Assembly (NCBI GenBank): GCA_044337025.1
Contig: JBIIOI010000008.1
Coordinates: forward strand, 43,727-107,726
Direction of reading: 5' to 3'
Source of the DNA: Planctomycetaceae bacterium
GTDB taxonomy: Bacteria; Planctomycetota; Planctomycetia; Planctomycetales; Planctomycetaceae
DNA length: 64,000 nucleotides
The notes beneath the pieces were generated by a model, which saw only the letters and a list, made by a program, of their open reading frames with translations, was not told the DNA's origin and ran no database searches. The translations under genes were made by a program, and so were the position numbers. Positions 4,096 through 64,000 of this stretch are shown here, piece by piece. The first letter of the stretch is position 1; every line of letters starts with the position of its first letter.

Positions 4096-4242
4096 CACAA
4101 GATTTCTTACACGCCCCTCGATTCTGGAGACATCGAAAATGGAATTTCGTCGTTGTCCTACTCCTTCGTAGCCAGTGCCTCCCCTCTCAACAGTCACCGA
4201 ACTCTCCTGGCCAGCGACACCCCCAACACCCATCTTTCAAGC

Positions 4243-5911: not shown

Positions 5912-5967
5912 CGCTGTTCCTTGTCAGGTGGGAGTGTGGTTGTATGTGCAACTATATGGCAAAAAAG

Positions 5968-6408: not shown

Positions 6409-6761
6409 TGATTCGGCTCCTGTTCCCCGTCGGATGAAGTAATTGTATGTGCAAGTAACGGTGTGTCAAGTGGGCGTTGAGGTCGTGCCTGGCTCGAGTC
6501 GAAACCAGGAGTAAGTTGCGAGTTGGTCACCTCGCACCAGCATTCAGGAGCAAATTGACGAGAAAACGCCCACGCGGTTGAGCGCTCAGTTGGCACGCCC
6601 TGGAGGCTTTGCGAAGGGCGTGGCTGTGGTAATGACTGAGGAATTGGACTGGCCAGAAATCGCACCACTACCAACTCGTAAGACAGCCTGTCCAGGCCGT
6701 CTCGACGCGAAAGCCGAGCTGACTCAGTCCGCTGGACTTTCGTCAGAATGTCACCGCTTCG

Positions 6762-6789
6762 GTAGGACGGGCTGGAAAGCCCGTCCTAC
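6762..6789 (-). terminator. intrinsic-terminator-like hairpin (11-bp GC-rich stem GTAGGACGGGC/GCCCGTCCTAC, 6-nt loop) 10 nt after the stop of the PQQ-repeat gene
   Basis: Perfect inverted repeat seen in the sequence. It lacks a clear U-tract, which is common in high-GC genomes. Confidence 0.5.
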
Positions 6790-6799
6790 CGAGCGTGGC

Positions 6800-33213: not shown

Positions 33214-33539
33214 GCCACGCGGGTCTCTCGTGGTCCCCGGAATCCGGCATTCCTCGCCGGTAAAACGCTGGAAAACTCCGTTTTCGGCAGGAGTTGCGCC
33301 TCCGGGAAAAACTTTTCGGGAGCCCTATTGACCCTTCGAAATCGGTTGGGATACACCGGCCACCCTCGAACGGTCATGTCCTGTTCCCACATCGAAACTG
33401 GACTCCCTCACACACCTCGAACGAACCCGTTTTCCCGAGCTCTGACCCGTGCCCCCCACGGTCAGATCACTCCGGATCCCCGATTCGGTCGAGTCGTCCC
33501 GGATCGTCTCCAACCCCGGAACTCCAGGCTGGTGCTTCT

Positions 33540-36500
33540 ATGGCGCGAAAATCTTCCAATCCCCGGAACGCGGATGCCGCTCCCAAGATGGGGCGAACCT
33601 TGAAGCGGTTCCTCGGCCTGATCGCCTGCGGTGGTCTGGTCAGCGCGAGCATCTGGATCAACAGCCAGATTAACGCTCAGGATCCCGAAGCGGGCTCAAA
33701 CCCCTTCGAGCGATACAAAACCAATTCGCCCGCCATGGGCAAAAGTGCCAAGTCGGCCAAACCCTCCGACGTGAACCGTCGCCGGGTGGAAGACCAGATG
33801 CGGCAAGCCCGCCTGGCCCTCCGGAACGGGAACAGCGAGGAAGCCCAGCGGCTGGCCACGGTGGCGGACAATATGTCCCGCCAGCTGAAGGTCACCTTCC
33901 AGGCTGACGAGCAGACCCCAACCGAGCTGCTCGCCCTGATTCAGGGGCCGGTTCCCTCGGACGAAGTCCAGCTCGCCAGCAGCGAGTCGAGTGGTCGGAA
34001 CGTGCAGCAGGCAGGAGCCAGCGACGATCCGCACGCCTTCGTTCAGGCTCTCCTCACCGAGGCTCGCGAAGATATCCGCCGCGGCGAACTGGAGACCGCT
34101 CGGCAGAAGATCGAGCAGGCCAGTGCGACCGAAGTCGAGTACGGGAACTTCGACGTTCGCCCGGAACATGTCCTTGCGGAACTGGCCAAGAAGCAGGCCG
34201 CCAGCCCGGATGGCCCCTCCGACACGTTCGCCGAAATCCAGCGGACCCCCAAGGCTGGCTGGTCCGACTCGGAAGCTCCCGCTCCGGCTGCGGACCCCAG
34301 TGAAGCTGGCTCCAGCGATCTGAAGGCTCAGGCCACGGAGCTGGTCGCTCTGGCTCGTGAGTCCCTGGAAAAGGGTCACCTGGAAGAGGCCCGCGCCTTC
34401 GCGATGGAAGCTCAGAAGCTGGACGTCGAGTACGGCCTGCTGGATGAACACCCCCAGCACGTGCTGGCCGAAATCGAACGGCGTTCAAAGTCGGTCGTGA
34501 TCACCAAGCGGGCAGGCAAGGCCGTTCCGGTTGCGAACACCGATGAAGGCACCGCCAGCAAGGAAGCCGCTCTGAAGCTGCTGAGTGAAGCTCGCCAGTC
34601 GCTGGCAGCTGGCAACGTCAAGGAGGCCAAGGCCAAGGCCAGCCAGGCTCAGGATCTGGATGTCGCCTACGGCATCTTCGATGACACGCCGGATCTGGTC
34701 CTCCAGGATGTGCGAAACACCGAATCCCGCGCTTCGATCGCAGCCTCGCGGCAGACAGGCACTCAGAACGTCGCCTCGTCCGGACAGAAGGAAGCCGCAC
34801 TGAAGCTGTTGTCCGATGCTCGTCAGGCACTGAAGACCGGCGATGTCACGAAGGCCAGCAAGCTGGTTTCGCAGGCCGAGCGGATCGATGTCGCCTACGA
34901 AACGTTTGATGACCGCCCGGAAATCGTCCGCGAAGACATTGAGCGTCTGGTGGCCGGTCAACCGGGTGCTCCAGCCGCTCCGGCTTCGGACCTGAGTGCT
35001 GAAGACCAGAAGAAGGCCGCTCTGTCGCTGCTCAAGCAGGCTCGTGAAGCGATGGAACTCGGGAACTCCCGAGTGGCCCAGACCAAGGCTCAGCAGGCCG
35101 CTCAGTACGATGTGACGTACGACCTGTTTGAAGACACCCCGGAGATGATCCTCGCGGAAGTCGAGCGCGGTGCGGCGGATGCCGTCGCTGCGAAGGCTCC
35201 AGAGGCCAATGCAATGGCCGCTGCGGAAAATCAGTTCGAAGAGGCCCCGGTTCTCAATGGGTCCGCTCTCGAACTCTACAACCAGGGCGTGGACTCTCTG
35301 CGTCAGGGGGATCGCGCCCAGGCTTACAATGCCTTCCTTGCGGCCTACCAGACCGGCGAGAAGCTCGACAACTACCGCCAGCAGCAGCTGCAGGACAAGC
35401 TGCGTGAGCTGGCTCCCCGCAACCAGATTCAGCAGGTCGCCAGTGAGGTTGTCGAAGGCCAGGACTCCGGCCATATCGACATGGCTGTGCAGGAGCACGA
35501 AGCCAAGTTTGACAAGCTGCGGACCGAGACGCTCAACAGCGTCTTCCGTGCCGGAAACATGAAGGAACGCAAGCCCGATCAGGCCAAGAAGCTGCTCGAA
35601 GATCAGCTGGCCGCGATTGAAGCGTCCGGATTCGCTCCCGAGCAGGTCGAGCCGTTGGCAGGGACCGTGCGGAGCAGTCTGAGTGACGTCGACTCCTACA
35701 TGAAGCAGCGGGCTCCGATTCTCGAACTGGAGCGGAAGAACGCCGAGACCCGTGAACTGGTCGAGCGAGAAATCCAGACTCGCGTCCGCGTGGAGCAGGA
35801 ACTGGCCACTCTGGTCGAGAAGTACAACGACCTGAAGGAACAGCACCGCTACGCCGAGGCTCACGCTCTGGCGAAGCAGGCTCTGGAACTCGATCCGAAC
35901 AACGCGATCGCAGTCCAGATGGAGCTGACCGCCAAGTTCGCCATGCGAAATGCCGAGATCGAACGACTCAAAGCCGACAAGGAAGAGTCGTTCTATGAAG
36001 GCCTGCAGGACGTTGAGCGTTCCGCCATCAACGTCCTCGCCAAGGGCGATTCGATTAAGTACGACGCCAAGAGGTGGGGCGACATCCAGAACCGTAAGGC
36101 CAGCCCGGTCGATGGCACGGAACACAGTGCTGTCGAAGAGCGGATCTACTCGGCTCTGAAGGCTCCGGTCTCACTGCACTTTGACAACACTCCTCTGCAG
36201 GACGTGCTGCAGCACATCGCCGACAATCAGGGAATCGCTGTCGTTGTCGACGCCGAGGGCCTGAATGAGGAAGGCAACACCGCCAGCACCCCGGTGACGA
36301 TCAGCGTCGACGGAATTCGTCTGGAGAGCGCACTGAACCTGCTGCTCAAGCAGTTGCATCTCGACTATGTGGTCGAGAATGAAGTGCTGAACATCACCAG
36401 TGCCAGCCGTCGTCAGGGAGACATGAAGGCCATCGTCTATCAGGTGGCTGACCTGGTGACTCCACTGAACAGCCACCAGAGCCCGACCTCGGTCCTGCAG

Positions 36501-38051
36501 GCGGGAACCGGTTATGGCAGCGGCGGTCAGTTCTCGGTCGGCTTCGGGGGATTGGGACAGCTCCCAATCGAATCGAACCCGCTGATGTCGAACTCGAGTC
36601 CGGACGGACTGGAAGGCCAGCAGCCCGGTGTTCCGAACCATGACTTCCGGGCGTTGTCCGACCTGATCATGACCACCGTCGACCCGGATTCCTGGGAAGA
36701 TAACGGAGGTCAGGCCTCGATCTCGAACCACGGCAGCACGCTGAGCTTGGTCATCCGCCAGACTCAGAAGGTCCACCAGGAAATCGCCGATCTGCTCAGC
36801 CAGTTGCGGCGGCTCCAGGACCTGCAAGTGACGATCGAAGTCCGCTACATCACGATCAACGATCGGTTCTTCGAGCAGATCGGTGTCGACTTTGACTTCA
36901 ACGTGAACGACTCGATCGGCGGTCCAAGCACCGACACGGCGTTCAACCCCTTGCGAGCATTCGGCACCGTCGACCCGGTCAACGGTGTTCAGGGTGGTGC
37001 CGGTCAGACCGGAAACCAGCAGCAGCAGGGTGGCCAGGGTGGCCAGCAGAATCAAGGCGGTCAGCAGAACCAGGGTGGTGCGACTAGCTTCGTGGGTGCA
37101 GTCGGTCCGTTTGCTCAGGGGCCACGGCTCAACATGGTGGGTCGTGATCGGTGGCCATCTCGAACAGTCGTCGGCATGAGTGCTCCCGGACAGTTCGCGG
37201 GTGACCTGGATGTACCGTTCCGGCAAGGTTCGTTCGATCTGGCAGCCCCGGCGTTCGGTAACTTCGACCCAGCTGCGGGTATCCAGTTCGGGATGGCCAT
37301 CCTGAGCGATATCGAAGCGTTCCTGTTTGTGCGAGCCGCACAGGGTGATCGCCGGTCGAACATCATGTTTGCTCCCAAGGTCACGACCTTCAACGGGATT
37401 CAGGCCTCGATCTCCAGCGGTTCTCAGCGTCTGTTCGTGACCGGACTGACGCCTGTATCCTCGGGCTTCTCGATTGGCTTCCAGCCGCAGGTGACTCCGA
37501 TCTTCGAAGGCACCCAGCTCACAGTTCTGCCGGTGGTCTCCGCAGACCGCCGGTATGTCCGCCTGAGCGTGCAGCCGAACTTCCAGAACATCACCGATGT
37601 GCAGACCTTCTCCTTCGCCGGTGGCGGGGCAGGTGGCCTGACCGGCCAGGGTGGCCAAGGTCAAGGCGGATTCGGTGGTCAGGGTGGTGGCCAGGGTGGA
37701 TTGGGTGGCCAGCAGGGTGGTCAGCAGGGTGGCCAGCAGGGTGGTCAGCAGCAGAACCAGAACGGTGGTAACGGCCAGGCCGCTGCCGTTCAGCAGCCAG
37801 TCGTCGCTGTCGTGACAGTTGGTACAACTGTCAGCGTTCCAGACGGTGGTACGGTCCTCCTGGGTGGCGTGAAGTCGCTGAGCGAAGGCCGCAACATGGC
37901 TGGGGTGCCGATCCTGAACAAGATCCCCTACATCAGCCGTCTGTTCCGCAACACCGGTGTCGGTCGCGAAACCAGCAGCCTGATGATGATGGTGACTCCG
38001 CGAATCATTATTCAGGAAGAAGAAGAGCAACTGCTCGGTCTGCCTGAGTAA
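33540..38051 (+). CDS. secretin-family outer-membrane channel (GspD/PilQ-like) with about 900-aa N-terminal extension
   Basis: The C-terminal secretin signature is GVPILNKIPYISRLFRNTGVGRETSSLMMMVTPRII. STN/secretin_N-like modules are present (LHFDNTPLQDVLQHIADNQGIAVVVDAEG...). The signal peptide is MARKSSNPRNADAAPKMGRTLKRFLGLIACGGLVSASIW. The start could be 33294, 33540 or 33588. Confidence 0.85.
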   Translation: MARKSSNPRNADAAPKMGRTLKRFLGLIACGGLVSASIWINSQINAQDPEAGSNPFERYKTNSPAMGKSAKSAKPSDVNRRRVEDQMRQARLALRNGNSEEAQRLATVADNMSRQLKVTFQADEQTPTELLALIQGPVPSDEVQLASSESSGRNVQQAGASDDPHAFVQALLTEAREDIRRGELETARQKIEQASATEVEYGNFDVRPEHVLAELAKKQAASPDGPSDTFAEIQRTPKAGWSDSEAPAPAADPSEAGSSDLKAQATELVALARESLEKGHLEEARAFAMEAQKLDVEYGLLDEHPQHVLAEIERRSKSVVITKRAGKAVPVANTDEGTASKEAALKLLSEARQSLAAGNVKEAKAKASQAQDLDVAYGIFDDTPDLVLQDVRNTESRASIAASRQTGTQNVASSGQKEAALKLLSDARQALKTGDVTKASKLVSQAERIDVAYETFDDRPEIVREDIERLVAGQPGAPAAPASDLSAEDQKKAALSLLKQAREAMELGNSRVAQTKAQQAAQYDVTYDLFEDTPEMILAEVERGAADAVAAKAPEANAMAAAENQFEEAPVLNGSALELYNQGVDSLRQGDRAQAYNAFLAAYQTGEKLDNYRQQQLQDKLRELAPRNQIQQVASEVVEGQDSGHIDMAVQEHEAKFDKLRTETLNSVFRAGNMKERKPDQAKKLLEDQLAAIEASGFAPEQVEPLAGTVRSSLSDVDSYMKQRAPILELERKNAETRELVEREIQTRVRVEQELATLVEKYNDLKEQHRYAEAHALAKQALELDPNNAIAVQMELTAKFAMRNAEIERLKADKEESFYEGLQDVERSAINVLAKGDSIKYDAKRWGDIQNRKASPVDGTEHSAVEERIYSALKAPVSLHFDNTPLQDVLQHIADNQGIAVVVDAEGLNEEGNTASTPVTISVDGIRLESALNLLLKQLHLDYVVENEVLNITSASRRQGDMKAIVYQVADLVTPLNSHQSPTSVLQAGTGYGSGGQFSVGFGGLGQLPIESNPLMSNSSPDGLEGQQPGVPNHDFRALSDLIMTTVDPDSWEDNGGQASISNHGSTLSLVIRQTQKVHQEIADLLSQLRRLQDLQVTIEVRYITINDRFFEQIGVDFDFNVNDSIGGPSTDTAFNPLRAFGTVDPVNGVQGGAGQTGNQQQQGGQGGQQNQGGQQNQGGATSFVGAVGPFAQGPRLNMVGRDRWPSRTVVGMSAPGQFAGDLDVPFRQGSFDLAAPAFGNFDPAAGIQFGMAILSDIEAFLFVRAAQGDRRSNIMFAPKVTTFNGIQASISSGSQRLFVTGLTPVSSGFSIGFQPQVTPIFEGTQLTVLPVVSADRRYVRLSVQPNFQNITDVQTFSFAGGGAGGLTGQGGQGQGGFGGQGGGQGGLGGQQGGQQGGQQGGQQQNQNGGNGQAAAVQQPVVAVVTVGTTVSVPDGGTVLLGGVKSLSEGRNMAGVPILNKIPYISRLFRNTGVGRETSSLMMMVTPRIIIQEEEEQLLGLPE

Positions 38052-51293: not shown

Positions 51294-52424
51294 GTGCATT
51301 CGACAATTGTCGAACCGCCCGACACACTGCGAAGGCGGAATTCTCCGCCGGTCTCGTTTTTCCTCTGGAGTCCCGCCCTCGTGGCGATTTCTCAGCCACT
51401 GACTGTTTCCGAACTGCTGCTGCTCAATGAGGAGCTGCGGTTGGCGCTGCGTTCTGGGGTCCCGCTTGATCTGGGGCTGCAGGATTCGTCGGGGCACCTG
51501 CCGCGCCGGCTGGCGCGGCTGGCGGAGCAGTTGGCGACGCATGTCAGCGAGGGACAATCGCTGCCAGCCGCCCTGGACCGCCTGGATCCCCCTCCGCCGG
51601 TCATCTATCGGGTCCTGGTCGCAGCGGGACTTCGCGGAGATCAGCTGGAGCGGGTGTTGACCCAGCTCGACGAGTTTGGGCGTGTGCTGATTGAGATGCG
51701 CGAGGCGCTGCGCCGGGCGATGATCTACCCCATGTCGGTGCTGATCGTCGGATATGCGGTGGCCTGCCTGACGATCCGGTTTGGAGTTCCTCCGCTGCGG
51801 GATTTTCTCGTCGATCTGCGAGCCCAGCCCAGTCCGCCGATCCAGGCGATGTACTGGCTGAACGAGAATTTCGCGGTCTGGGCGATCGGGTTGCCTGTGG
51901 CGTTCTTTCTGCTGACGGGTGCCGGTGTGCTGTACGACTGGGTTCAGTCCGGTCGACTGGGATCTCTGGGGCTCTTGCGGTTCGTGCCGGGGCTGAACGC
52001 CGTCCGCAAGAACTTTGAGATGTCGCAGCTGGCTCACCTGTTGTCGATTCAAGTGGAGCATGGAGTCCCGCTCCCCGAGTCACTTCGCCGCTGTGCCGAG
52101 TTTGCGGGTCACGGCCGTTTGGGTCGCGACTGCGAGAACGCCGCACAGCAAGTCGAAGCGGGAGCCCCGATTACACAGTTCCAATCCGCCCCGCCGTTTC
52201 TGCAATGGATCCTGACGGTCCCCGTGTCGCAGTCAGAACTCGTCGCGAACTCGCGTCAGGCGGCTGAGCTCTACCGGGATCGCACGGCGCTACAGGCCGA
52301 GTGGATCGCGCGGGTCATTCCAGCGGTTCTCACGCTGGGACTGGGAACACTGATCGTGGGAGGATATGGCTGGGTGGTGATGGACAGTCTCGCGGTTGTC
52401 TGGAAAAGGTTGATGCATGAATAG
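51294..52424 (+). CDS. type II secretion/type IV pilus platform protein F-family paralog 1 (GspF/PilC-like)
   Basis: 376 aa with a GTG start. T2SSF-like repeats are present (LRLALRSGVPLDLGL; LAHLLSIQVEHGVPLPESL), and 3-4 TM segments. Confidence 0.7.
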   Translation: MHSTIVEPPDTLRRRNSPPVSFFLWSPALVAISQPLTVSELLLLNEELRLALRSGVPLDLGLQDSSGHLPRRLARLAEQLATHVSEGQSLPAALDRLDPPPPVIYRVLVAAGLRGDQLERVLTQLDEFGRVLIEMREALRRAMIYPMSVLIVGYAVACLTIRFGVPPLRDFLVDLRAQPSPPIQAMYWLNENFAVWAIGLPVAFFLLTGAGVLYDWVQSGRLGSLGLLRFVPGLNAVRKNFEMSQLAHLLSIQVEHGVPLPESLRRCAEFAGHGRLGRDCENAAQQVEAGAPITQFQSAPPFLQWILTVPVSQSELVANSRQAAELYRDRTALQAEWIARVIPAVLTLGLGTLIVGGYGWVVMDSLAVVWKRLMHE

Positions 52425-53451
52425 CCGCGATGAACTGCCGTCTGAGGAGGATCTGCCGGTCGAGGCAGTCCAGCGTCTGGTTCAGGCCGGAATGCCGCTG
52501 GCGCACGGGCTGCGAGCTTACGCCGAGGAGTTCCCGTCCAAGTCGGCCACCGCCCTGCGTCAATTGGCCCAGGCGGTCGAGTCCGGGACTCCGCTCAGCT
52601 CAGCCATCCAGCAGCCGGGAATTTCGATCCCGACTTACCTCGCCGGACTGATCGAAGGAGGGCTGCAGTCGAACATGATCGGAGTGATGCTGGAGCAGTA
52701 CCTGCATCAAAGACGCCGCCAGCGCCGGCTGGGACAGAGGGCCGTTCTCGACTTCGCCTACCCGCTGGTTGTGCTGCTGCTTTCCTGCGTGATCGGGTTT
52801 GCGCTGCTGACATGGCTGGTCCCGATGTTCAGAGAGATGTTCGATGACTTTGGCATCGAACTGCCATTCATCACGCGATTCGCTTTCTCATTGTCCTCCG
52901 CAGCATTGCTCCTCAAGTGGCCCATCATGCTGGGGCTGGTCGGCGCGGCGCTGACGCTCATCGTCTTGTTCGCGGGGTCGCGCTGGACGATTGCGGTGTT
53001 TGATCGCATTCCGTTCCTGGGGCGATCGGCTCGGTATGCCACGATGGCCGAGTTCTGTTCGTTGCTGGCCCCCCTGGTGCAGGCCGGCGTGCCGATCACT
53101 CGCTCGCTGCAGGCTGTCGCGTCTGCGATGCAACCTTCGATGGTCCGATCGGGCACGATTCACCTGTCTGCATTCTACGACGGCTCCGAGACGCTGGCCG
53201 ACCTGGCGGATGAGCGGCGTCTGCTGCCAGCGGAACTGGTCCACCTGCTCCGCTGGGAAGATCGCGGGAACGCCTTTGCGGAGATCCTGAAGTCCTGGTC
53301 AGAGCTGTTTAGCCGCATGGCGTCGGGCCACTCAGCCAAGGTCTCGGCACTGCTGGCACCGCTGCTGATGCTGGGGATCGGGATGTTCGTTGGATTACTG
53401 GTGATCGCGTTGTTTATGCCCCTCGTCAAGTTGCTGAACGAATTGTCCTGA
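52417..53451 (+). CDS. GspF/PilC-family paralog 2
   Basis: 344 aa. It overlaps the preceding gene by 8 nt. The T2SSF repeat RQLAQAVESGTPLSSAI is present, and the C-terminus LVKLLNELS matches that of paralog 3. Confidence 0.75.
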   Translation: MNSRDELPSEEDLPVEAVQRLVQAGMPLAHGLRAYAEEFPSKSATALRQLAQAVESGTPLSSAIQQPGISIPTYLAGLIEGGLQSNMIGVMLEQYLHQRRRQRRLGQRAVLDFAYPLVVLLLSCVIGFALLTWLVPMFREMFDDFGIELPFITRFAFSLSSAALLLKWPIMLGLVGAALTLIVLFAGSRWTIAVFDRIPFLGRSARYATMAEFCSLLAPLVQAGVPITRSLQAVASAMQPSMVRSGTIHLSAFYDGSETLADLADERRLLPAELVHLLRWEDRGNAFAEILKSWSELFSRMASGHSAKVSALLAPLLMLGIGMFVGLLVIALFMPLVKLLNELS

Positions 53452-53460
53452 GACTCACTC

Positions 53461-54981
53461 ATGTGGATCGTGCTGCTGACACTCCTAGTTCCGCTGGTCG
53501 GAGTCGCCTTACTGGTGGCCGACGCCTGGCGACAGACTGCGCTGCCGTTTCACACGCGCCAGGTGTGGACCCATGCGGTGCAGGGGGCGAGCGTGATCAG
53601 CCTTGCACTGGCTGCAGGATTGGTTGTCTCCGCGCTGATCGTGTCGTTGGATGCGACTCAGCCATGGCTGCTCCTGCTGCCACTGCAGGGGATTCTCGCG
53701 TTCATCGTCGGTGGCACGGGCTATCTGGGGCTGCATGTGCCGCGCTCCTGGCCGAAGGACAACGAGGACTGGGACGACCCCGCGGTGATCGAGCGCTGTA
53801 CACCGCATTCTCTCCTGGATCACCAGACCACCGCGCGACTCCGCAGCGGTGCCTGGGTCATGGTGCTCTATCCGCTGCTGTTCCTGGTTCCAATTCTGGG
53901 GTTCTTCGGAATCGCTCTCTTCCTGCTTGGCACCATAACGCTGACGACCATCGTTCATGTGCGACGCGGGTTCCAGTCACAGCTGTTGTGGCTGCTCGCC
54001 ATCGCTCTGCGGCATCAGTTGCCGCTGTCTCCCGAGCTGCGACAGCTTGGCACTCGACGTGGTGTCAGTGTGCGAATACGGCTCAATGAGGCCGCGAACA
54101 ATCTGGAGGGCGGCGATCCGCTGTGGCTCGTCCTGGAGCGTGCGCGGCTGCTGCCCGCAGCTGCAGTATCGGCCATTCGGGTGGCTGAAGGCGGCGGGCG
54201 GCTGGAAGAGACCGTCCGCCGGCTGGCGATCAACTCGACGGAACGGTTGAAGGTGTTCAGTCTCTCGGGACTGAGCGACGTGCTGACCCAGTTCATCGTG
54301 ACTCTCATGGCGATGGTGGCGATCACGGGATTCCTGATGTACTTCATCATTCCCAAACTCAAAGATATCTTCGAGGGGTTTGATGTCGAGTTGCCAGTTC
54401 CAACGCAGGCCCTGACCAACAGCAGCAACTACGTGGTGAATCGCGGCTTCACCCCGGTCATTTTCTGGGTCGGGCTGGCGCTCGTCAGTCTGGTCTGGAT
54501 GCTGCTCCGACATATCGTGGGGTGGAGTTCCCTGTCGGTGCCGATTCTGATGCACTTCCATCCGCGGCGCGACGCCCCGGAGATATTGCGAGTCCTCGCG
54601 GGGTTGATTCGGGACCAGGCCGCGCTGCCCGAGAAACTCAAAGACCTCTCGCACCGACGCGGGCGGCCTGACCTGGGTGCCCGTTACCACCGCATGGGCG
54701 ACCGGCTGATGGCGGGGGAGTCACTCTCTCTGGCCTTGTTCAACGAGGGGGTGCTGAGCCCCGCACAGACCGAAGCGGTGGCTGCGGCGGAACGGGGAGG
54801 ACATCTGGAGTTCGTACTGTTTGCGATGGCGGATGCCCTGGAACAGCGTGAGTTTCGGCAGAGTTCCACTTGGGCGGAACTGGTCAAGCCGGTGTCTACG
54901 CTGATCTGTGCGGCGCTGGTCGGGTTCTTCGTACTCGCCTTCTTCCTGCCGCTGGTCAAGTTGCTGAAGGAGTTGAGCTAA
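53461..54981 (+). CDS. GspF/PilC-family paralog 3 with an extra N-terminal TM region
   Basis: 506 aa. ...LLWLLAIALRHQLPLSPELRQLG...AIRVAEGGGRLEETV... is present. The C-terminus is LPLVKLLKELS. Confidence 0.7.
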   Translation: MWIVLLTLLVPLVGVALLVADAWRQTALPFHTRQVWTHAVQGASVISLALAAGLVVSALIVSLDATQPWLLLLPLQGILAFIVGGTGYLGLHVPRSWPKDNEDWDDPAVIERCTPHSLLDHQTTARLRSGAWVMVLYPLLFLVPILGFFGIALFLLGTITLTTIVHVRRGFQSQLLWLLAIALRHQLPLSPELRQLGTRRGVSVRIRLNEAANNLEGGDPLWLVLERARLLPAAAVSAIRVAEGGGRLEETVRRLAINSTERLKVFSLSGLSDVLTQFIVTLMAMVAITGFLMYFIIPKLKDIFEGFDVELPVPTQALTNSSNYVVNRGFTPVIFWVGLALVSLVWMLLRHIVGWSSLSVPILMHFHPRRDAPEILRVLAGLIRDQAALPEKLKDLSHRRGRPDLGARYHRMGDRLMAGESLSLALFNEGVLSPAQTEAVAAAERGGHLEFVLFAMADALEQREFRQSSTWAELVKPVSTLICAALVGFFVLAFFLPLVKLLKELS

Positions 54982-55401
54982 GTGTTCTCTCGTACAAGCA
55001 CACCGCAGAACGTCGCGAGATCAACCCGAGCTGGCATGACACTGCTGGAAGCCACTGTGGCGCTCGCGGTCGTGGCCATCGTCGTGGCTGCCATCATTCC
55101 AGTCCTGTCACGAACGGCCCGGATTCGGGATCAGGTCGAGCACCGCGAAGTGGCCCTGCAGGCCGTAGCCAATCTGCTGGAGCGGGCTGCGGTCCTGCCC
55201 GAGCGGACAGAGACCAGCCTGCAAGCTGTTGTTGCGACCGTTCTGCCTGCAGATCAGCTCCCGCAGCCAACATGGGTCTTCACTGTGCAGGCTGAAGAGC
55301 CCGCCCTGCAGCGAATCGAGGCCCAGCTCACCTGGCAGCACAGTGGCCAGACTCCTCGCTCGGTGTCACTGGTCCGCTGGTATCCCGGAGGACAGCCATG
55401 A
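54982..55401 (+). CDS. pseudopilin (prepilin-type N-terminal cleavage/methylation domain)
   Basis: Leader ...ARSTRAG followed by the mature N-terminus MTLLEATVALAVVAIVVAAIIP (Glu at +5). GTG start; AAGGAG lies about 10 nt upstream. Confidence 0.7.
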   Translation: MFSRTSTPQNVARSTRAGMTLLEATVALAVVAIVVAAIIPVLSRTARIRDQVEHREVALQAVANLLERAAVLPERTETSLQAVVATVLPADQLPQPTWVFTVQAEEPALQRIEAQLTWQHSGQTPRSVSLVRWYPGGQP

Positions 55402-55913
55402 AGCGGGATACCCGACTTGTCCGTGAACGCCGACGCGGCTGGATGCTCGTGGAGCTGCTGATCACGCTGACACTGATTGCTATCGCGGGAGGCACTGCCG
55501 TTTTCCTGATCGCTCGCATGCTGCGCACCAGCCAGGTGCAGGCTGATGCGCTGGTTCTGAACCGGACCTTGCATGAGTGGGAGGACCAGTTCCGTCAGGA
55601 CAGCCGTTCTTCCCAGACGGCCCGAGTGCTGACGGGGGCCACCCCCTCGATTCAGTTCCAACAGGGCGAGACCCGCGTGACGTATCTGTCGGTGGCTGCT
55701 GGCATCGAACGGCGAGTCAACGACCAGTTGGCGGGGCGCTGGCAAACGCGCGGTGAGTGGCAGTACACACTGGACGAGAGTGCGGGAATCGTGAGGGCAG
55801 AACTGCATCGTTCGTACGAGCTGTCGTCCTCCGAGCAGCTGACGAAGGGACAGAAGGAACTGCCTCGGCGTCGTCTGCTCCGAGTTGAAGCTGCGATCGG
55901 GAGGACGCCATGA
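55398..55913 (+). CDS. pseudopilin-like protein
   Basis: Leader MKRDTRLVRERRRG followed by WMLVELLITLTLIAIAGG (Glu at +5). ATGA overlap with the preceding gene. Confidence 0.65.
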   Translation: MKRDTRLVRERRRGWMLVELLITLTLIAIAGGTAVFLIARMLRTSQVQADALVLNRTLHEWEDQFRQDSRSSQTARVLTGATPSIQFQQGETRVTYLSVAAGIERRVNDQLAGRWQTRGEWQYTLDESAGIVRAELHRSYELSSSEQLTKGQKELPRRRLLRVEAAIGRTP

Positions 55914-56335
55914 AGGGCCGACCAACATCTTCATCGTGGCATCGCATTCGTCGTCGAGGGCTGGCTTTGTTGTCAGCTCTCGTCTGTGTGGTGGTCCTGG
56001 CCGCTCTGTCGCTGACGCTGACTCGAACGGTTCTCGCCCGCGTCCGTGAAGCCGAACTGCACCACCAGCGGCTGCAAGCGAATGCTCTCGCCGAATCCGC
56101 CTACGTGCGAGCCCAGTCGCAGTGGCGAGCCAACCCGGACTGGACCGGAGAAATCTGGTCCCCGAAAGCCGAAGGGCTCTTCCAGCTGCAAGCCGAGATT
56201 CGAGTCCCAGCTGCGGATGCCGAACCGCAGCTGCACGTTGTCAGCCAGGTCAGTGCCGGTCCCGATTCGGTCGTACGTGTCGAACGCCGTTTCCCCTGGC
56301 CCCCCGCCCCGAAGTCACAGGTCGCCAACCCATGA
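55910..56335 (+). CDS. pseudopilin-like protein lacking Glu+5 (GspK-like N-terminus)
   Basis: Leader ...HRIRRRG followed by [21 protein letters not shown] overlap. Confidence 0.5.
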
Positions 56336-57237
56336 ACACAGCCACGAATACGCCTGGCGCTCGGGAAGTCTCTCCGTGGGGATCATCGATGCGGCATGGG
56401 TTCACGCTCATCGAACTGCTCGTCGTAATCGCCATCATCGCGGTTCTGATCGCCCTGCTGCTGCCCAGCGTGCAGCAGGCCCGCGAGGCGGCAAGGCGAT
56501 CACAGTGCCAGAACAATCTGCTCCAGCTGGGCCTGGCGCTGCACGATTACCATCTGGCCCATCGGACCTTTCCGCCCGGGTCCGTCAATCTCACAGGCCC
56601 CGCTGACAATACTCGATCCGGTTACAAACATGGCTGGGGCGTTCAGATCCTGCCGTTTCTGGAGGAACCGGCTCTGGCCCGGGCGATCGATCCGAATCGG
56701 GGAATCTTTGAACAGGTGCAGACCGACCTGGGACTGCTCGCCCCCTCCACATTCAGCTGTCCGAGCAGCCCGTTGAATTTCTCCTCGACGGGCGGGCGGG
56801 GATCGTACGCCGGATGTCACCATGATCAGGAGGCCCCCATTGATGTCGATCAGAACGGCATGCTGTTCCTCAACAGCCGAGTAACTCTGAATGACGTCGA
56901 GGACGGGCAGCAGTACACCCTGCTGGTCTCGGAAATGCGCGACCACGGTCACTGGGCGGCGGGGAATCGACTGTCGCTCCGCAATACGGGGGCTAAGATT
57001 GACAACCTGAAGAACGTCACTGCTCCGACTGGGCCAATCGCCACAGCGATGACGGTCGAAGAACTCGACCCGGTCCGCAAGAGTCTGCACGTCGGCGGCT
57101 TCGGCAGCTATCACTCGAACGGAGCGAATCTGCTGATGGTCGACGGATCGATCCGGTTTGTGAATACGAGCGTGGATACTGCGATCTACCAGCACCTGGG
57201 CAATCGCCGGGATCATCAGATCATCGGGGAGTTCTAA
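56332..57237 (+). CDS. DUF1559 (H-X9-DG) protein with prepilin-type N-terminus
   Basis: ...[44 protein letters not shown]...[19 protein letters not shown] is present. ATGA overlap with the preceding gene. Confidence 0.8.
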
Positions 57238-57239
57238 CG

Positions 57240-58307
57240 ATGACGATCCCGCATGCACGCACGCGACACGGCTTCACGCTGATCGAACTGCTGGTCTCGA
57301 TTGCGATCATGGCCATCATCGTGGCAATGACGATCCCCGCTGTTCAGGGGGCACGACAGGCGGCTCACGCCATCCGCTGCCGGGGACAGCTCGCTCAGCT
57401 GGGGCAGGCGTTTCACGCTTACCACCTCGCGCAGGGATCACTCCCCGCCGGCTCCGTCGACTTGAAGTCGCCCGCCATCGCGGAGCCCAGTCGCTTCGTT
57501 TGGGGCTGGTCGTTACAGCTGCTTCCGCATCTGGGCGAAGGGAACCGCTACCGGGCGCTGGATGCCAAGCTCGGGATCTTCGCAGCTCCCAATGCGCAAG
57601 TCCTGGCGAAGACGCCGTCTCTCTTTCAGTGCCCAGGCAGCAGTCGGAACGACACGATCGGATACGCGGGCTGTCATCACGACCGGACCGGCGAGATTCA
57701 CGAATCGAATACGGGAGTGCTGACCCTCAATAGCCACGTGCGGTTTCAGGACCTGCCGGATGGAATGCATCAGACGATCCTGCTGGGTGAAGCTGCCGAG
57801 GTCCGGTGGGCCGAGGGAGCTCATGGGAGCCTCCGCAGCACGGGCGAGCCGTGGGTCAAAACACACACGCGAGCCCCCCTCACCGCCGAGGAGGAAGCGA
57901 AGCTGCAGAGCATCCAGGAATCGATCCGCGCGGAGGAAGAAGAGCTGGAAGCCGCGCGATTGACCTATGTCGATCAGGTTCAGTCGGATTACCCGCCTCC
58001 GCCGCCGATGGTTGAACCGATCTCCAGCGACGACGAGGAGATGTTTGCGGCCGAGGAAAGGTCTGGCTTGGAGATGTGGGAGATGGGAGCGGAATCCGGG
58101 ATGGGTGATGGAAGCGTGCCTCCCCCGCCGCCCGCGCCCGAGTCGCTGCCCGCTTCGCGAGCCTTCGGGTTCTGGACAGCTCACCAGGATGGGGGCCATT
58201 TCCTGCTCGTCGATGGGTCGGTCCGCCTGATCTCTCAAAGTGTGGATCAGGAAGTCCTGCGGCGGCTGGCGAATCGTCGGGACACTCGCGATCCGGGAGA
58301 GTTCTAG
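57240..58307 (+). CDS. DUF1559 protein with prepilin-type N-terminus and an acidic/Pro-rich insertion
   Basis: [51 protein letters not shown]...[16 protein letters not shown]. The insert is [21 protein letters not shown]...PPPPPMVEP...PPPPPAPE. Confidence 0.8.
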
Positions 58308-58308
58308 G

Positions 58309-60144
58309 ATGTCCCCACGGAACATCAGCTCCTGGAAATTCGCGGTCTTGTGCCTCGTCATCTGGTGCGGTTTGGCAGAGCGCAGCTGGGCCCAGAGTGA
58401 TGACTCCGAAGCGGACATCCAGATCGTCGACGCCAAGTGGGGCTTTGACGGCCACGTCCGGCACAAGACGTTCGTGCCACTGCGAATCATCATCAAGAAT
58501 CGCGGCATGCAGCCTCGCACGCTGCTGTTGCGGCTGACTCGCGCGGATGCGTTCAACGCGATCGGAGAGTCCATCGAGCAAGAGATCACGATCTCCGCCG
58601 ACACGACGCGGCTTGTGCAGATGACACCGTTTGTTTCCGACCCGGGAGAGTCCTGGACCCTGCGCTGGGGTGACTTGGATCTGGAATCCCACACAATCAA
58701 GGGGATCTCTGCCGATGACGGGATCTGCCTGATCACGAGTTCCCGAGAGATCTCGCAGCGTAGCGGATTCCTGTCCACGATGGATGAGGACGAGTTCCCG
58801 ACCTCGGTCACGGGGCTCGATGCGCTGCGGTTCCTGTTCCTCGATCACGAACCCCAATGGCCCCCGCCACGCCGCAAGGCTCTGGAAGAGTGGCTGCTCA
58901 AGGGGGGCACCGTCGTGATCTTGAACCGGGCCGATGGCAAGGCTCCCGAGTTCATCGAGATGCCGTTTCTCAATACAACCGGTAAGGCGACCGCGTATGG
59001 CCAGGGGGTGATCCTCCGGCTCCAACAGACGCCGGTCTCGATCACGAAGAAGTTTCTTGAGGAGCAGATACTCGGTCGGTCGATGACCAGCGGGGATCTC
59101 GACCAGCGGCTCAAGGCCTACAACCAGACAGTTCCGCAAGGGAGTTCCTGGTGGAATGGCAGCTTCGAACTCGCCACCTACTCTCGCGATCAGGTGTTGA
59201 CCCAGTTGATGGACGTGGCCGGGACCCGCCAGCGCTGGGGACTGATCTACCTGACGCTGCTGATCTATGTCGGCTGGCAGTGGCGTATCGGTTGGCGCTG
59301 GGGGTTGATGGAGAAACAACCGAACCGACACTACGCCTGGTTGTTCGGTCTGGCTGTGGCCTTTTCGCTGATCTTTTACTTCTCAGGCCGCTCTGGATAT
59401 GGGAACGACCGCGTCCGCTCGATTGTCGTGGCCAAGCGGATCTCGGCGGGTCTCTTCGATGTGGAGGGCTGGAGCGTGATGGCCACCAGCCTGACCGGTG
59501 ACCGAAAAGAGATCTCGTTCCCCGGCACCGGACAGCTCTACGGCGGAGCCGAGTCGTTCGGCCAGAATCCCATCACGATTCGCGACGGCAAGATGCAGGT
59601 GGAACTCAATGCGTTCTCCTCGCAGCGACTGGCATTTCGCACTCGCGTTGAGATGCCGGACATTCCGTTCCAGCTTCAAGCTTCCGGTCCCGATATGTGG
59701 CAGAGCAAATCGGCCCGACTGGTGATCGACCCGGCCTACCCGGGGAACGTCTACGCCGCAGTCGTGGCGATCGAGGACAGTCTGTACGAATTCGAACCCA
59801 AGCTCGGGGCACTGGCTCCAACAACCCACTGGTCCGAGAAGACTGAGTACTGGCTCCACCCGCAGAACCCGCGCAGAAATGTCTGGCGGTTCTCACTCTT
59901 CAGCAGGCTCTTCGACTGGCGAATGACGGAAGAAATCTACCTAGAGGCGTTCTCAAGCGTCGTGGGGAACGGATTCAACGTCGGCTCGAACGTCTACCCG
60001 GACTCGTTTGTCGTCCGTCCTGGGTACGCCCGCGTGATGCTGTTTGTTGACTGGCCTGCAGAGCTGAACTGCCAGGGCACCTTCGGGGACCAGGGGGGAC
60101 GCATGCTGTATGTGCAGGACGTCCCACTGGGGGGCCGACCATGA
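58309..60144 (+). CDS. hypothetical signal-peptide protein with a central hydrophobic segment (611 aa)
   Basis: The N-terminus is MSPRNISSWKFAVLCLVIWCGLAERSWAQS. The ATG lies 1 nt after the preceding stop. Internal TM-like segments occur around WGLIYLTLLIYVGW and YAWLFGLAVAFSLIFYF. Confidence 0.5.
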   Translation: MSPRNISSWKFAVLCLVIWCGLAERSWAQSDDSEADIQIVDAKWGFDGHVRHKTFVPLRIIIKNRGMQPRTLLLRLTRADAFNAIGESIEQEITISADTTRLVQMTPFVSDPGESWTLRWGDLDLESHTIKGISADDGICLITSSREISQRSGFLSTMDEDEFPTSVTGLDALRFLFLDHEPQWPPPRRKALEEWLLKGGTVVILNRADGKAPEFIEMPFLNTTGKATAYGQGVILRLQQTPVSITKKFLEEQILGRSMTSGDLDQRLKAYNQTVPQGSSWWNGSFELATYSRDQVLTQLMDVAGTRQRWGLIYLTLLIYVGWQWRIGWRWGLMEKQPNRHYAWLFGLAVAFSLIFYFSGRSGYGNDRVRSIVVAKRISAGLFDVEGWSVMATSLTGDRKEISFPGTGQLYGGAESFGQNPITIRDGKMQVELNAFSSQRLAFRTRVEMPDIPFQLQASGPDMWQSKSARLVIDPAYPGNVYAAVVAIEDSLYEFEPKLGALAPTTHWSEKTEYWLHPQNPRRNVWRFSLFSRLFDWRMTEEIYLEAFSSVVGNGFNVGSNVYPDSFVVRPGYARVMLFVDWPAELNCQGTFGDQGGRMLYVQDVPLGGRP

Positions 60145-61688
60145 CCCCGCTGGGACTGCTGACTCTGCTTGGACATTCCTTACGGCACGAGTCGCGCAGC
60201 CGCGCTGCGCACTGGTTTCGGATGGGGAGCCTGTTCATCGCGACGTGGCTGCTGATCTCGGCTCATTATTCGTCGTGGGCCGTCGGATCGGTCGGTCGAA
60301 CATTTATCGAGTCGCTGACGTATCTCAATCTGCTGCTGATCGTGATTGCCGGCAGCAGTTACTTTGGTTCAGTCATCACGGAAGAGAAGGAACAGGGCAC
60401 GCTGGGACTGCTCAAGCTGGCGGGGTTCTCGAATGCCGGGCTGATGCTGGGCAAATCGACAGCTCGAATTCTCTCGGCCCTGGTGATCTTCGGGATGCAG
60501 CTGCCGTTCGCCTTTCTGGCGATCGTATTGGGAGGGATCTCGGCTCCGAGTATCTTCGCAGCCTATCTGGCACTGGGGGCCTATCTGATCTTTCTGGGGA
60601 ACGTCGGCCTGCTGATGTCGACCGTGTGTCGACGCAATGCTCTGGCCACGTCGACGACATTCTTGATCGGGGCCCTGCTGGTCTGGGGCGGAAAGATCGC
60701 TGCGTTCAGCAGCACCGCAGGGATCGCCAAAAGCGTCGGCTGGGTCGGCAGTGCCGTGGACAAGTTCACGGAGTTCGAGTCGTGGTTCTCCTTGCATGAG
60801 AGATTGCGCGAGATCATCACGGTTCGAAATGCCCCCATCGTGACAGCTCAGTTCTGGGTTTCGCTCGGACTGGCGGCCGGACTGTTCGGTTTGTCATGGC
60901 TGCTGTTTGACCGCTTCACGGAGTACACCGAGAGCATCGATCCGCACCGTTCCGGTTCCAAATGGGCGAGGTGGCAGCTGGCAGTTTCGCGCCCCTGGCG
61001 AAACGCACTGGCCTGGAAGGAGTACCAGTTCAGCACCGGCGGGCACACCACATTCGGCTTGAAGCTTGTGCTTTACGCCGCAATCATCGCGAGCGGCGTG
61101 GTGCTGCGGGACTGGGGCGAGAAGAAATATGGAGTCAAGCTGCCGGATCTGGTGTTTGGTTCGATCTGCGGAGTGTTCCTGCTGGAGTGCCTTGGCTTCT
61201 CCGGGACCTTCCTGGGCAGTGAGTACGTTGGTGGCACGCTGCCCAACCTGATCCTGATGCCAAAATCGGTCGCCCGGATCGTGGCTGCCAAGCTCTTCGG
61301 CGGGCTGATATCCGTGTTGCCAACCGTGATCGCGATCGTCGTAGCCAGCCGATTTCTGCCGCCAGATACGATCTTGTTCGACTGGCGCACGCGGGATCTC
61401 GTGCTGGTGACGAGCTATCTGCTGCTGCTACATCTCACCGCGTTCTATTCGATCCGCGTACGACGCGGCGCGATCGCCTGGGCGGTCGGCACGCTGATTA
61501 TCGGAGGAGTGGTCGTCGTGCCGCTGCTCGAAATGGTGCGGATGTCGCTGCTGCCCCTGGGGAGGAAAACTCCCTGGCAGGAACCGGGAGCCGAGTACTG
61601 GGCTCCGCTGACTTACATCACCGTGATGTTCTGCCTGGCCCTGCAGGTGGGGATCGGCGTTCGCTTGAAGAATGCCGTGGGCGAGTAA
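60141..61688 (+). CDS. ABC-2 family transporter permease (double-length, about 12 TM)
   Basis: 515 aa with an ATGA overlap. The ABC-2 signature region is SVITEEKEQGTLGLLKLAGFS. Confidence 0.6.
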   Translation: MTPLGLLTLLGHSLRHESRSRAAHWFRMGSLFIATWLLISAHYSSWAVGSVGRTFIESLTYLNLLLIVIAGSSYFGSVITEEKEQGTLGLLKLAGFSNAGLMLGKSTARILSALVIFGMQLPFAFLAIVLGGISAPSIFAAYLALGAYLIFLGNVGLLMSTVCRRNALATSTTFLIGALLVWGGKIAAFSSTAGIAKSVGWVGSAVDKFTEFESWFSLHERLREIITVRNAPIVTAQFWVSLGLAAGLFGLSWLLFDRFTEYTESIDPHRSGSKWARWQLAVSRPWRNALAWKEYQFSTGGHTTFGLKLVLYAAIIASGVVLRDWGEKKYGVKLPDLVFGSICGVFLLECLGFSGTFLGSEYVGGTLPNLILMPKSVARIVAAKLFGGLISVLPTVIAIVVASRFLPPDTILFDWRTRDLVLVTSYLLLLHLTAFYSIRVRRGAIAWAVGTLIIGGVVVVPLLEMVRMSLLPLGRKTPWQEPGAEYWAPLTYITVMFCLALQVGIGVRLKNAVGE

Positions 61689-61742
61689 CTCGACTTGAGC
61701 TTCACATCCTGTGCGAGTTCGCGACTGGCCCGCTCAGCCACA

Positions 61743-62462
61743 CTAAGGCTTGTCGGGTTCCACAAGCGTTGGCTCGTTGTTCGTCGAATCGACGGTCTGG
61801 CGGGGCTTGGTCACCAGAATCTGCGGCTTCACACCGTCATGAACTCGAACCTGGCTGATCATCTCCTGCTTCAGCAGAGTCCCCATCGCCTTCTTCAGGT
61901 TCATCAGAGCCAGAGAGTAGGTCAGCTTCGAGTTGGCAAAGTCCGACTCAGCCTGGGTGGCCTTGGCCTGGGCCTCCAGAAGAGTATTCAGGAACAGCGG
62001 GCCGCTCTGATCCTCGCCGGGTAGTTTCTCCCAGCGATTCTTCAGTGCGCCGACTCGCTCCACTGCGGCGTTCATCGATTGATACTTGAGCTGCATCTCG
62101 GCGTAACTGGTTTCCACTTCGCGGACCGCGACTTCCGCCTCCAGGCTCAAAGTCGCGATCGTCGTGGCGAGCTGACTCTGCATCTGACGCAGCTCCAGCT
62201 CTCGACGTGAGTAGCGACCTCGGGCCTGGCGATTTCCGATTGGGATGTCGAACATCAGACCGGCATTGGCACTGGGACGCCCGCTGGAGAACTGGTCGAC
62301 CCAGGCATCCGACATCTGAAAGTCGCCCTGCAGTCCTTCGGCATAGACACCGAAGACCGCGTTGAGCTGTGGCAGCAGTTCGTTCTTCGACATGTTCAGT
62401 CGAATGCCAGCCGCGTGAACCTGCTTGATGTTCTGTTGAATCTCGGGCCGCTGCGCGATCGC
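61743..62462 (-). pseudogene. C-terminal half of a TolC-family outer-membrane efflux protein; N-terminal half absent
   Basis: The minus-strand ORF reads ...AIAQRPEIQQNIKQVHAAGIRLNMSKNELLPQLNAVFGVYAEG...VETSYAEMQLKYQS...LEAQAKATQAESDFANSKLTYSLALMNLKKAMGTLL, i.e. OEP repeat 2. Upstream of about 62462 the minus-strand reading is antisense of the SdrD-like repeats and shows no TolC similarity. Confidence 0.55.
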
Positions 62463-62492
62463 GGTCGTCTGCACATCGGCCAGTTCAAACGG

Positions 62493-64000
62493 AATGTTGA
62501 TGGCAACGGCACCACCGACGTCACGTTGACCGACACGACGGATGCCAATGGGAACTACCTGTTCAGCAACCTCCCCGTGGGCGACTACACCGTCCGGGTG
62601 ACCCCGCCAGCGGGATTCGACCAGACGTTCGATGCCAACGGAGCCCTCGACAACACGTCGATCCACACGCTCGGTGCAGGCGAGAACAACGTCGCTCAGG
62701 ACTTCGGCTACACCGGCCAGGGGTCCATTGGTGACCGCGTCTGGTTTGATGCCGACCAGGATGGAGTTCAGGACGCGGGCGAGCCGGGCTTCCCGAACAT
62801 CACGGTTCAGCTGGAAGTCGATCTCAACGGCGATGGCACCGCCGACTACACAACGACAACGAGCACGGACAACAACGGCAACTACCTGTTCCAGGATCTG
62901 CCACCGGGAGACTACACGATCTCGGTGCTGACCCAGCCCTCGGGAGCCACGCCGACCTTCGACGCGGACGGAGGACTGGATCAGACCTCTGCTCTCACAC
63001 TCGGGGTCAACGATGACAATCTGGCTCAGGACTTTGGATACAAAGGGGCCGGTTCGATCGGCGACCGCGTGTGGCTCGATCTCGATGGGGACGGAGCACA
63101 GGACCTTGGCGAGCCAGGTATCGTGGGCGCGACAGTCCAGCTTGATCTGGACCTGACCGGGGACGGCGTGGCCGATTACACCACGACGACGGTCACCGGA
63201 GTTGACGGACAGTATCTGTTCAGCGAGCTGCCGGTCGGAGACTACACGATCACTGTCACTCAGCCAGCGGGCACGGTGCAGACATTCGACAACTCCGGAG
63301 CGCTCGATAACGCCTCGCAACATACGCTGGGAGCCGATGAAGACAACGTTGCTCAGGACTTCGGGTATCAGGGCACCGGCTCAATCGGTGACAAGGTCTG
63401 GTTCGACCAGGACGGAGATGGAGTCCAGGACGTCGGCGAGAATGGGATTGTCGGAGTCGATGTCGCTCTCGACATCGACTTCAACGGCGATGGCACCTTC
63501 GACGCCACGCTGACGACGACCACCGACCAGAACGGGAACTACCTGTTCGACAATCTTCTGGCTGCAGACTACACCGTGCGAGTCACTCCGCAGGTGGGGT
63601 ATGTCCAGACATTCGACAGTGACGGTACTGCCACCTCGAACGCCTCGGACCACACACTGGCCGCCGGGGAGAACAATACGGCTCAGGACTTTGGCTATCG
63701 CGGCACCGGTTCGATCGGCGATCAGGTCTGGCTGGATCTCGACGGAGACGGCGTGCAGGACGGTGGGTTGGAAGTCGGTTATCCGAGCGTGCCGGTCCAG
63801 CTTGACATTGACTTCAACGGCGATGGCACCATCGACCAGACGTTGAACACGACAACCGACGCGACGGGGAACTACACGTTCAACAATCTGCTCCCGGGTG
63901 AGTACACGGTCACCGTGACTCCGCCGAGTGGGACGACGCAGACGTTCGACAACGACGGGACCGGGACAGCCAACGTCTCGCAGGAGACACTGGCCCCGGG
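62493..64000 (+). CDS. SdrD/Cna-B-type repeat array (about 110-aa period; DxDGDGxxD Ca-binding-like motifs); no start codon or N-terminus identifiable; runs off the window end
   Basis: The frame opens after a TGA at 62208-62210. Periodic units ...GSIGDRVWFDADQDGVQDAGEPG...DLNGDGTADYTTTT.TD.NGNYLF..LP.GDYT..VT.P.G...TFD.DG... repeat about 4.5 times. There is no Met anywhere in the frame. Confidence 0.6.

Follow-up and report, generated by a model that had tools for sequence, protein, structure and literature searches.

The 64,000-nucleotide stretch of contig JBIIOI010000008.1 from a Planctomycetaceae bacterium studied in this work (called the window in its entirety) contains, close to its right-hand end, a junction at which the 3' part of a minus-strand gene for a TolC-family outer-membrane protein meets a plus-strand array of SdrD_B repeats. 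Very probably, this junction was left as a scar by a single collinear deletion, which an uncultured Planctomycete underwent in its chromosome. TolC codon 337 would have been joined to a point deep in the SdrD_B array of a giant gene by illegitimate recombination, with a microhomology of 0-4 nt. That both genes are truncated at one junction had already been put forward in an original prediction made from the letters of the window, and this is borne out by the homology, which breaks at 62497, and by the array, which is present mid-unit from 62498. One of the explanations offered there, a genomic rearrangement, can now be specified as a collinear deletion relative to the intact sister allele on contig L083 (throughout, L-labels denote contigs and P-labels proteins that were compared with the window, e.g. 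contig L083 and protein P0144).

The minus-strand reading frame resembles TolC in its 3' part only, just as the original prediction had it. The match to Pfam OEP (PF02321) is confined to amino acids (aa) 281-481 of a 526-aa open reading frame (ORF; E = 6.9e-14) and that to TIGR01844 to model positions 214-411 of 414, which represent the second structural repeat. A TolC protomer comprises two tandem OEP structural repeats; the remnant possesses only the second one, while intact orthologues show two matching stretches. Residues 277-526 of the 526-aa ORF alone align to intact TolC, and 247 of these 250 residues, including the first ones (IPFE), are identical (98.8%) with residues 337-586 of the intact 586-aa protein P0144. 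Homology to intact orthologues begins at window position 62495-62497 on the protein as well as on the DNA level, and the DNA of L083, L021 and L002 does not match beyond 62497. The gene is partial, as had been claimed, but the limit of TolC similarity originally placed at about 62462 has to be corrected, as TolC-derived sequence reaches 62497. An N-terminal half overlooked in another frame, which the prediction had named as a possible objection, is not present: the 5' half of the gene is absent from the rest of the window. As judged by eye, the remnant ORF called from MSKNELLPQLN does not bear a signal peptide; the N-terminus of the intact allele reads MDRLLSRLWFGLRRSALRTLTVGTVVLACANSGYSQ. Genes for partner periplasmic adaptors (HlyD/MFP), three of which flank the intact allele, do not occur within the window. 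Opposite the repeat array, the antisense frame runs through 276 codons without a stop and is fused to the TolC remnant, which gives rise to the 526-aa ORF; further long antisense ORFs overlie the array, e.g. at 63381-63653 (-).

The intact allele emerged when the N-terminal half of the orthologue in L021, the closest one from a genome, was used as a query, which led to many full-length proteins of 586-590 aa. Among these is P0144, encoded on the 17.8-kb contig L083. On the flank past TolC, L083 carries genes for a 515-aa ABC-2 permease, a 611-aa protein, two DUF1559 proteins and two small proteins in the same order as the window. On the divergent side, upstream of TolC, genes for a 297-aa adaptor of the resistance-nodulation-division (RND) type (MFP297) and a 651-aa HlyD-family protein (HlyD651) are followed by one for a 744-aa protein in which an M50-type intramembrane metalloprotease is fused to a HlyD domain (M50-HlyD744), by a 108-aa ORF and by the last gene, which encodes a giant DUF11/isopeptide-domain protein of at least 1058 aa and runs off the contig. 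In window orientation, the order is ABC-2 (+), TolC (-), MFP297 (+), HlyD651 (+), the 744-aa fusion (+), the 108-aa ORF (+) and the giant gene (+). L083rc 1-7160 corresponds to window 55337-62497 at 94.3% identity and the match stops exactly at 62497. The remaining 10.6 kb of L083 have no counterpart in the 64-kb window or in a 2-kb extension provided by contig L018, and the same space contains none of the missing genes (TolC 5' half, three adaptors, 108-aa gene, 5' part of the giant gene). In L021 and L022, which are 77% identical on the nucleotide level, TolC is intact and the nucleotide match to the window ends at 62497 and 62489, respectively; L021 exhibits the same divergent adaptor layout as L083. 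Full-length TolC genes in a single frame are present in 61 of 62 loci from GTDB genomes, the exception being cut by a contig end.

On the base level, the junction can be placed at 62497/62498 within about 2 nt, with 62497 as the last TolC-derived and 62499 as the first clearly array-derived base. Microhomology at this point is possible over at most 4 nt (ATGT), and such shortness is a signature of illegitimate and not of homologous or site-specific recombination. Neither inverted repeats nor mobile-element ends flank the junction. Since the repeat units are mutually only 63-79% identical, the junction does not fall on any shared repeat. Exact-protein look-up of the ABC-2 permease and of a 216-aa ORF called in the TolC remnant identified contigs with the junction in at least five independent assemblies: JGI 3300059473, JGI 3300034094, ENA ERZ27272067 and ERZ27272077 (MEGAHIT) and Logan SRR10955595. 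The four contigs for which DNA was available are 99.96-100% identical to the window and extend across the junction by 200 to 3500 nt. Logan contig L001 is 100% identical with window 56401-62708, and ENA contigs L018 and L019 as well as JGI contig L020 span the junction at 99.96-100%. A contig present in both JGI and NCBI (sample 3300059473) has the same gene calls. Base-for-base recurrence of the junction in independent assemblies is far beyond chance, and in several samples this population proved to carry the deletion allele. Promoter- or terminator-like sites were not apparent in 61500-62800, which is weak evidence because the scan covered sigma-70-type consensus sites only.

The plus-strand frame bears the highly periodic repeat of the SdrD/Cna-B type that had been described in the original prediction: it contains, inside the window, five SdrD_B units with a period of 327-333 nt (PF17210, E = 6e-88, five stretches). 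Entry in the middle of a repeat is likewise upheld, as the first unit starts at the 'NGDGT' position, halfway through an SdrD_B domain. The same is true for the reported lack of ATG, methionine and signal peptide. Neither an ATG nor a methionine codon occurs in the 596 codons between the upstream stop at 62208-62210 and the window end. The only possible starts in this frame are the GTG at 62415, used by metagenome gene callers, and a TTG at 62436, and no signal-like sequence follows either of them. This frame, which includes position 62493, stays open from the stop at 62208-62210 to the window end. Because the GTG at 62415 lies within TolC-derived DNA, it is not an ancestral start, and the 26 residues preceding the repeat in the called product are the antisense of TolC codons. 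ATG 62393 and GTG 62415, which gene callers chose as starts, occur there by chance.

The complete product of this frame, P0211, was retrieved by an exhaustive HMMER search. It consists of 1701 aa with 14 units of 109-111 aa, followed by a 260-aa non-repeat C-terminal module, and lacks LPXTG. A word-indexed protein search with the SdrD array returned matches of at most 56% identity, all shorter than 880 aa; it provided no orthologue and missed P0211 itself. Residues 1441-1701 of P0211 match the extreme C-termini of P0220 (E = 3e-36), P0217, P0360 and P0242. L083, L021, L028, L040 and L075 possess the native N-terminus, i.e. an LE..LEE(R)I.F leader plus a region of the DUF11 type with about 1000 aa, which the product encoded in the window lacks. 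The array also has a higher-order structure, in which a block of about seven units recurs at 79% nucleotide identity (window 62499-63550 versus 64806-65863 in the L018-derived extension), compared with 63-75% between neighbouring units.

The SdrD array of the window appears to be the distal part of the same giant gene that stands at the end of L083, where it occupies the same strand and the same side. Orthologues of the L083-type N-region adjoin this TolC family in 8 of the 62 GTDB loci, and among the best 150 HMMER matches the L083-type N-region was present in 19 giants. L040 contains an uninterrupted ORF of more than 2815 aa, in which an L083-like N-region and DUF11/DUF7619 domains are combined with five SdrD_B units from about aa 2290 onwards. 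In P0220 (3676 aa), P0217 (3403 aa), P0242 and P0293, one chain comprises an N-region of the L083 type, an SdrD array and a C-terminal module like that of P0211; P0360 and P0243 show the same three-part chain with incomplete N-regions. In view of these three-part giants, P0211 appears to correspond to the C-terminal half of a protein of this kind, the N-terminal part of which is seen in L083.

Of the TolC gene, codons 1-336 would have been lost in the proposed deletion, and of the giant gene no fewer than 1058 codons at the 5' end, together with everything in between: the shared divergent promoter region, the three adaptor genes and the 108-aa gene. With these segments, the native start of either gene, the signal peptide of TolC and the N-terminal leader of the adhesin would have disappeared. 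Relative to L083, the missing segment measures at least 10,601 nt. By analogy with the giants of 3400-3700 aa, the giant gene probably lost about 1700-2000 codons, and the total size of the deletion is probably about 12-14 kb. We infer that one event, not several, made the junction. A small deletion between directly adjacent divergent genes was also considered and rejected for this lineage, as the intact allele separates them by three adaptor genes and the 108-aa gene. The remnant differs from the intact TolC allele at 21 of 750 nt, and three of these differences change an amino acid (synonymous divergence, dS, 0.105; ratio of nonsynonymous to synonymous divergence, dN/dS, 0.059). Intact neighbouring genes yield dN/dS values of 0.077 (the ABC-2 permease gene, 94.6% nucleotide identity) and 0.089 against L083, and the remnant has values of 0.06-0.09 against L006 and L002. 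From such low values it follows that the TolC remnant was under selection in an intact gene for almost all of its history and that the deletion is therefore recent, with which the still open 1701-codon adhesin frame agrees. As they are devoid of promoters, native starts and export signals, both head-to-head remnants are most likely pseudogenes and would not be expressed. The features concerned are compiled in Table 1.

Table 1. Coordinates of the deletion junction and associated features in the window
Feature	Position	Strand	Remarks
Deletion junction (proposed)	62494..62499		Three-way alignment of window, intact allele L083 and a paralogous repeat unit
TolC-family outer-membrane protein gene, 3' remnant	61743..62497	-	Codons 337-586 plus stop; second OEP repeat only
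216-aa ORF called by metagenome pipelines	61743..62393	-	Start ATG 62393, MSKNELLPQLN...; begins within second OEP repeat
Spurious 526-aa ORF	61743..63323	-	TolC remnant extended via the stop-free antisense frame of the repeat array
Giant adhesin gene, putative 3' part	62498..64000	+	Array enters mid-unit and runs beyond the window to ~67520
GTG start used by gene callers for the 1701-aa product	62415..62417	+	Within TolC-derived DNA
ABC-2-like permease gene	60141..61688	+	Convergent with TolC remnant; conserved flank, collinear with intact allele

Several points weigh against a single collinear deletion. Of the giant gene, L083 contains 1058 codons and breaks off before any SdrD array, and a complete giant gene was seen in no close relative; the identity of the array is based on collinearity, orientation and distant homologues. 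SdrD_B domains were encountered within the 10-kb flank in just one of the 62 GTDB loci, a low count that is largely explained by the flank limit. The very low dN/dS of the remnant would fit continued selection as well. It is unlikely that the remnants are under such selection, since export signals are missing from either product, the first repeat is incomplete and the partner genes have been lost. A reciprocal product of an inversion or translocation, or a second intact copy, may be located outside of the window.

An assembly mis-join or chimeric contig, which had been among the options of the original prediction, is ruled out. Repeat arrays often break or confuse short-read assemblies and both genes do end abruptly at one point, but the identical junction is crossed in at least five assemblies that stem from different samples and different assemblers, and its sequence is unique, with repeat units too dissimilar (see above for identities) to be confused. 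The prediction had furthermore considered that a repeat gene was inserted into the TolC gene. Such an insertion finds no support, as the TolC 5' half is found neither beyond the repeat gene, according to the gene list of the source contig, nor elsewhere in the window, and the giant gene is already positioned in the same orientation on that side in the intact allele. Very improbable, though less so than a mis-join, is a functional arrangement in which a TolC-like protein of half the usual size is expressed together with an adhesin shortened at its N-terminus and both are kept by selection. The dN/dS values of 0.06-0.09 for the remnant against L083, L006 and L002, the open adhesin frame of 1701 codons and a distant relative (L008/L009) in which half a TolC gene likewise abuts a truncated giant gene would be in line with it. 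On the other hand, neither product has a signal peptide or the native N-terminus of its family, the first SdrD_B unit is cut mid-domain, the adaptor genes needed by a TolC-type system are gone from the window and the region 61500-62800 is devoid of promoter-like sites. The TolC breakpoints of other broken alleles are scattered (codons ~348, 401, 443 and 494), 61 of the 62 genome loci are full-length, and a low dN/dS is also expected of a young remnant.

A more complex rearrangement deserves more weight, although it too is improbable. It could have been an inversion or translocation with the reciprocal junction elsewhere, a series of successive deletions, or the replacement of the giant gene by a horizontally acquired gene of the SdrD type. 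Room for such scenarios is left by the indirect identification of the SdrD gene with the giant gene of L083. Moreover, the region varies among relatives, with synteny in L007 being lost directly after the ABC-2 gene, and the source contig continues into genes of the defence/immunity type (HamA, SMI1_KNR4). However, order and orientation of the remnants are exactly those predicted by a simple deletion from the L083 arrangement, no fragment of the missing genes is left within the window, and homologous giants exhibit the required domain order in one ORF. A single collinear deletion remains the explanation that we prefer.

When compared with known systems, the minus-strand remnant is homologous to the second OEP repeat of the TolC/OEP family (PF02321; TIGR01844). 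It differs from working family members in having just one of the two structural repeats, in lacking a signal peptide and in the deletion of its adaptor genes; it is a gene fragment and not a functional representative. The plus-strand product shares with SdrD/Cna-B-type adhesins (PF17210), such as the staphylococcal microbial surface components recognizing adhesive matrix molecules (MSCRAMM) SdrC and SdrD, the tandem SdrD_B-type units of 109-111 aa with DxDxDG-like motifs. In contrast to SdrC/SdrD, the array reaches NCBIfam scores of 208 and 160 bits, well below the cut-offs of 1700 and 2500, and P0211 possesses neither LPXTG nor an A domain but B-type repeats only. The product belongs to the class of Planctomycete giant surface proteins represented by L083, L040 and P0220, with a DUF11-type N-region and a distinct C-terminal module.

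The linkage of a giant adhesin gene with genes for TolC/HlyD-type export is exemplified by Pseudomonas lapA with the divergent lapEBC genes. The intact allele resembles this arrangement, as its TolC-family gene is divergent from adaptor genes and a giant repeat adhesin gene. It differs in that no ABC exporter gene was seen inside the intact cluster and in that one adaptor is fused to an M50-type intramembrane metalloprotease. The TolC/HlyD cluster may secrete the giant protein. Linkage of the TolC family, HlyD-type adaptors and a giant surface-protein gene is conserved (L083 1-9277, L021 1-8691, L028, L040 and L075), and the cluster, which as far as could be seen is uncharacterised, could be a dedicated export system. 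The metalloprotease part of the fusion adaptor is daptide-HExxH-like, with a score below the cut-off, and the giant gene family is characterized by the N-terminal 'LE..LEE(R)I.F' motif and a common C-terminal module. Planctomycetes are rich in giant genes, most of which encode surface proteins (Kohn et al. 2016, PMC5177795; Reva and Tummler 2008 as cited there), and the intact cluster fits this picture. As in other deletion-generated bacterial pseudogenes, the sister allele is intact and collinear, the breakpoint is sharp and shows no more than 4 nt of microhomology, promoters and starts have been lost, and the remnants have not yet degraded. The only unusual aspect is that one event would have beheaded two divergent genes situated more than 7 kb apart in the ancestor.

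The cluster is broken in other metagenomic lineages as well. L006 (1-2489) exhibits a collinear 4.0-kb deletion equivalent to L083 6884-10919, which removed half of HlyD651, MFP297 and TolC codons 1-442. In L008 (3-4764) and L009, from a distant relative, TolC is preserved from codon 348 or earlier and stands head-to-head, at a distance of 17 nt, with an orthologous giant gene that lacks about 553 codons. TolC is truncated at its 5' end at about codons 401 and 494 in L016 and L017, respectively. In-frame stop codons are present in L002-L005, i.e. in four assemblies (TGA, at about 7718-7720 in L002), and in L013 (TAG, within 1690-1740), and L014 contains an internal deletion with a frameshift (5300-5960). 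The non-coding flanks downstream of the TolC remnants in L006 and L017 could not be aligned, as expected at a dS of about 1, and are uninformative. L008, together with a first TolC-fragment search that gave mostly fragments, had suggested half a TolC gene beside a start-less giant gene as a conserved functional architecture. This idea was rejected because 61 of 62 loci are full-length, breakpoints are scattered, signal peptides are missing and close alleles are intact. The query with the 3' fragment is enriched for broken alleles, and complete losses are invisible to it. As genome representatives are nearly all intact and complete losses are missed, the pattern of broken alleles is partly an ascertainment effect. 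Loss of the cluster may nevertheless be recurrent.

The related TolC-like protein P0008 (431 aa; L010-L012) lacks about the first 240 residues of the family and has a hydrophobic, signal-like N-terminus of its own; it is encoded in a conserved operon with genes for FtsK, SecA-like and adaptor proteins on three independent contigs. L025 and L026 (WVZU01000343.1 and WVYN01000018.1) are one and the same 7159-nt contig in two metagenome-assembled genomes (MAGs) labelled Planctomycetales and Gammaproteobacteria, i.e. a binning duplicate, in which the TolC reading frame continues for 1305 codons without a stop.

With guaA, glgA, a POT transporter gene, a cluster for secretin and T2SS-F proteins and genes for DUF1559/N-methyl pseudopilins, the window is Planctomycete chromosomal DNA, and its closest genome matches are MAGs of Planctomycetota. 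The ABC-2 permease found no relatives among genome contigs. Among metagenome contigs, L007 was its sole relative, with 81% nucleotide identity over window 54472-61692; synteny is lost directly after the permease stop, so that L007 does not inform on the junction. From the position equivalent to window 61692 onward, L007 (7237-12817) instead encodes a 174-aa membrane protein, a glycerol-3-phosphate-dehydrogenase-like and a sulfatase-like protein. Relatives therefore differ in whether they possess the TolC/adhesin cluster. Beyond the giant-gene remnant, the gene list of the source contig (window-equivalent ~67.6-71.7 kb) contains a GDSL lipase, an SMI1_KNR4 protein (immunity-type) and a HamA-like protein (Hachiman defence) and then citrate synthase, which suggests a variable region or defence island. 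Upstream of the junction, a very large secretin-domain protein (33294-38051, +; 1585 aa, with the secretin domain at the C-terminus only) and, further along at 51294-54981, three consecutive T2SS-F-type genes with DUF1559 pseudopilin genes make up an unusual cluster resembling those for type II secretion systems (T2SS) or type IV pili.

The deletion described here is a case of ordinary gene loss and gene-cluster decay, and the same cluster is independently broken in other lineages. Long-standing questions are not opened by the scar itself. It is a clean, dated case of the loss of an adhesin/export cluster in an environmental Planctomycete population. In terms of annotation, two proteins listed for several public metagenomes, an 'outer membrane protein' of 216 aa and an 'SdrD-like protein' of 1701 aa, would be remnants of one deletion and not real genes, and the antisense ORF of 526 aa is spurious. 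A further point of note is the linkage of TolC, three HlyD-type adaptors, one of them fused to a metalloprotease, and a giant surface-protein gene. A wider and rather doubtful reading sees the deletion in the window as one of several independent natural knock-outs of a conserved TolC/triple-HlyD/giant-adhesin cluster. If this were true, free-living Planctomycete populations could be under recurrent selection to inactivate a surface structure that is costly or dangerous to them, perhaps a receptor for phages or predators, or an apparatus for attachment that is unneeded in planktonic life. The cluster would then represent a dedicated route, not described before, by which giant surface proteins are exported via an M50-protease-HlyD fusion adaptor.

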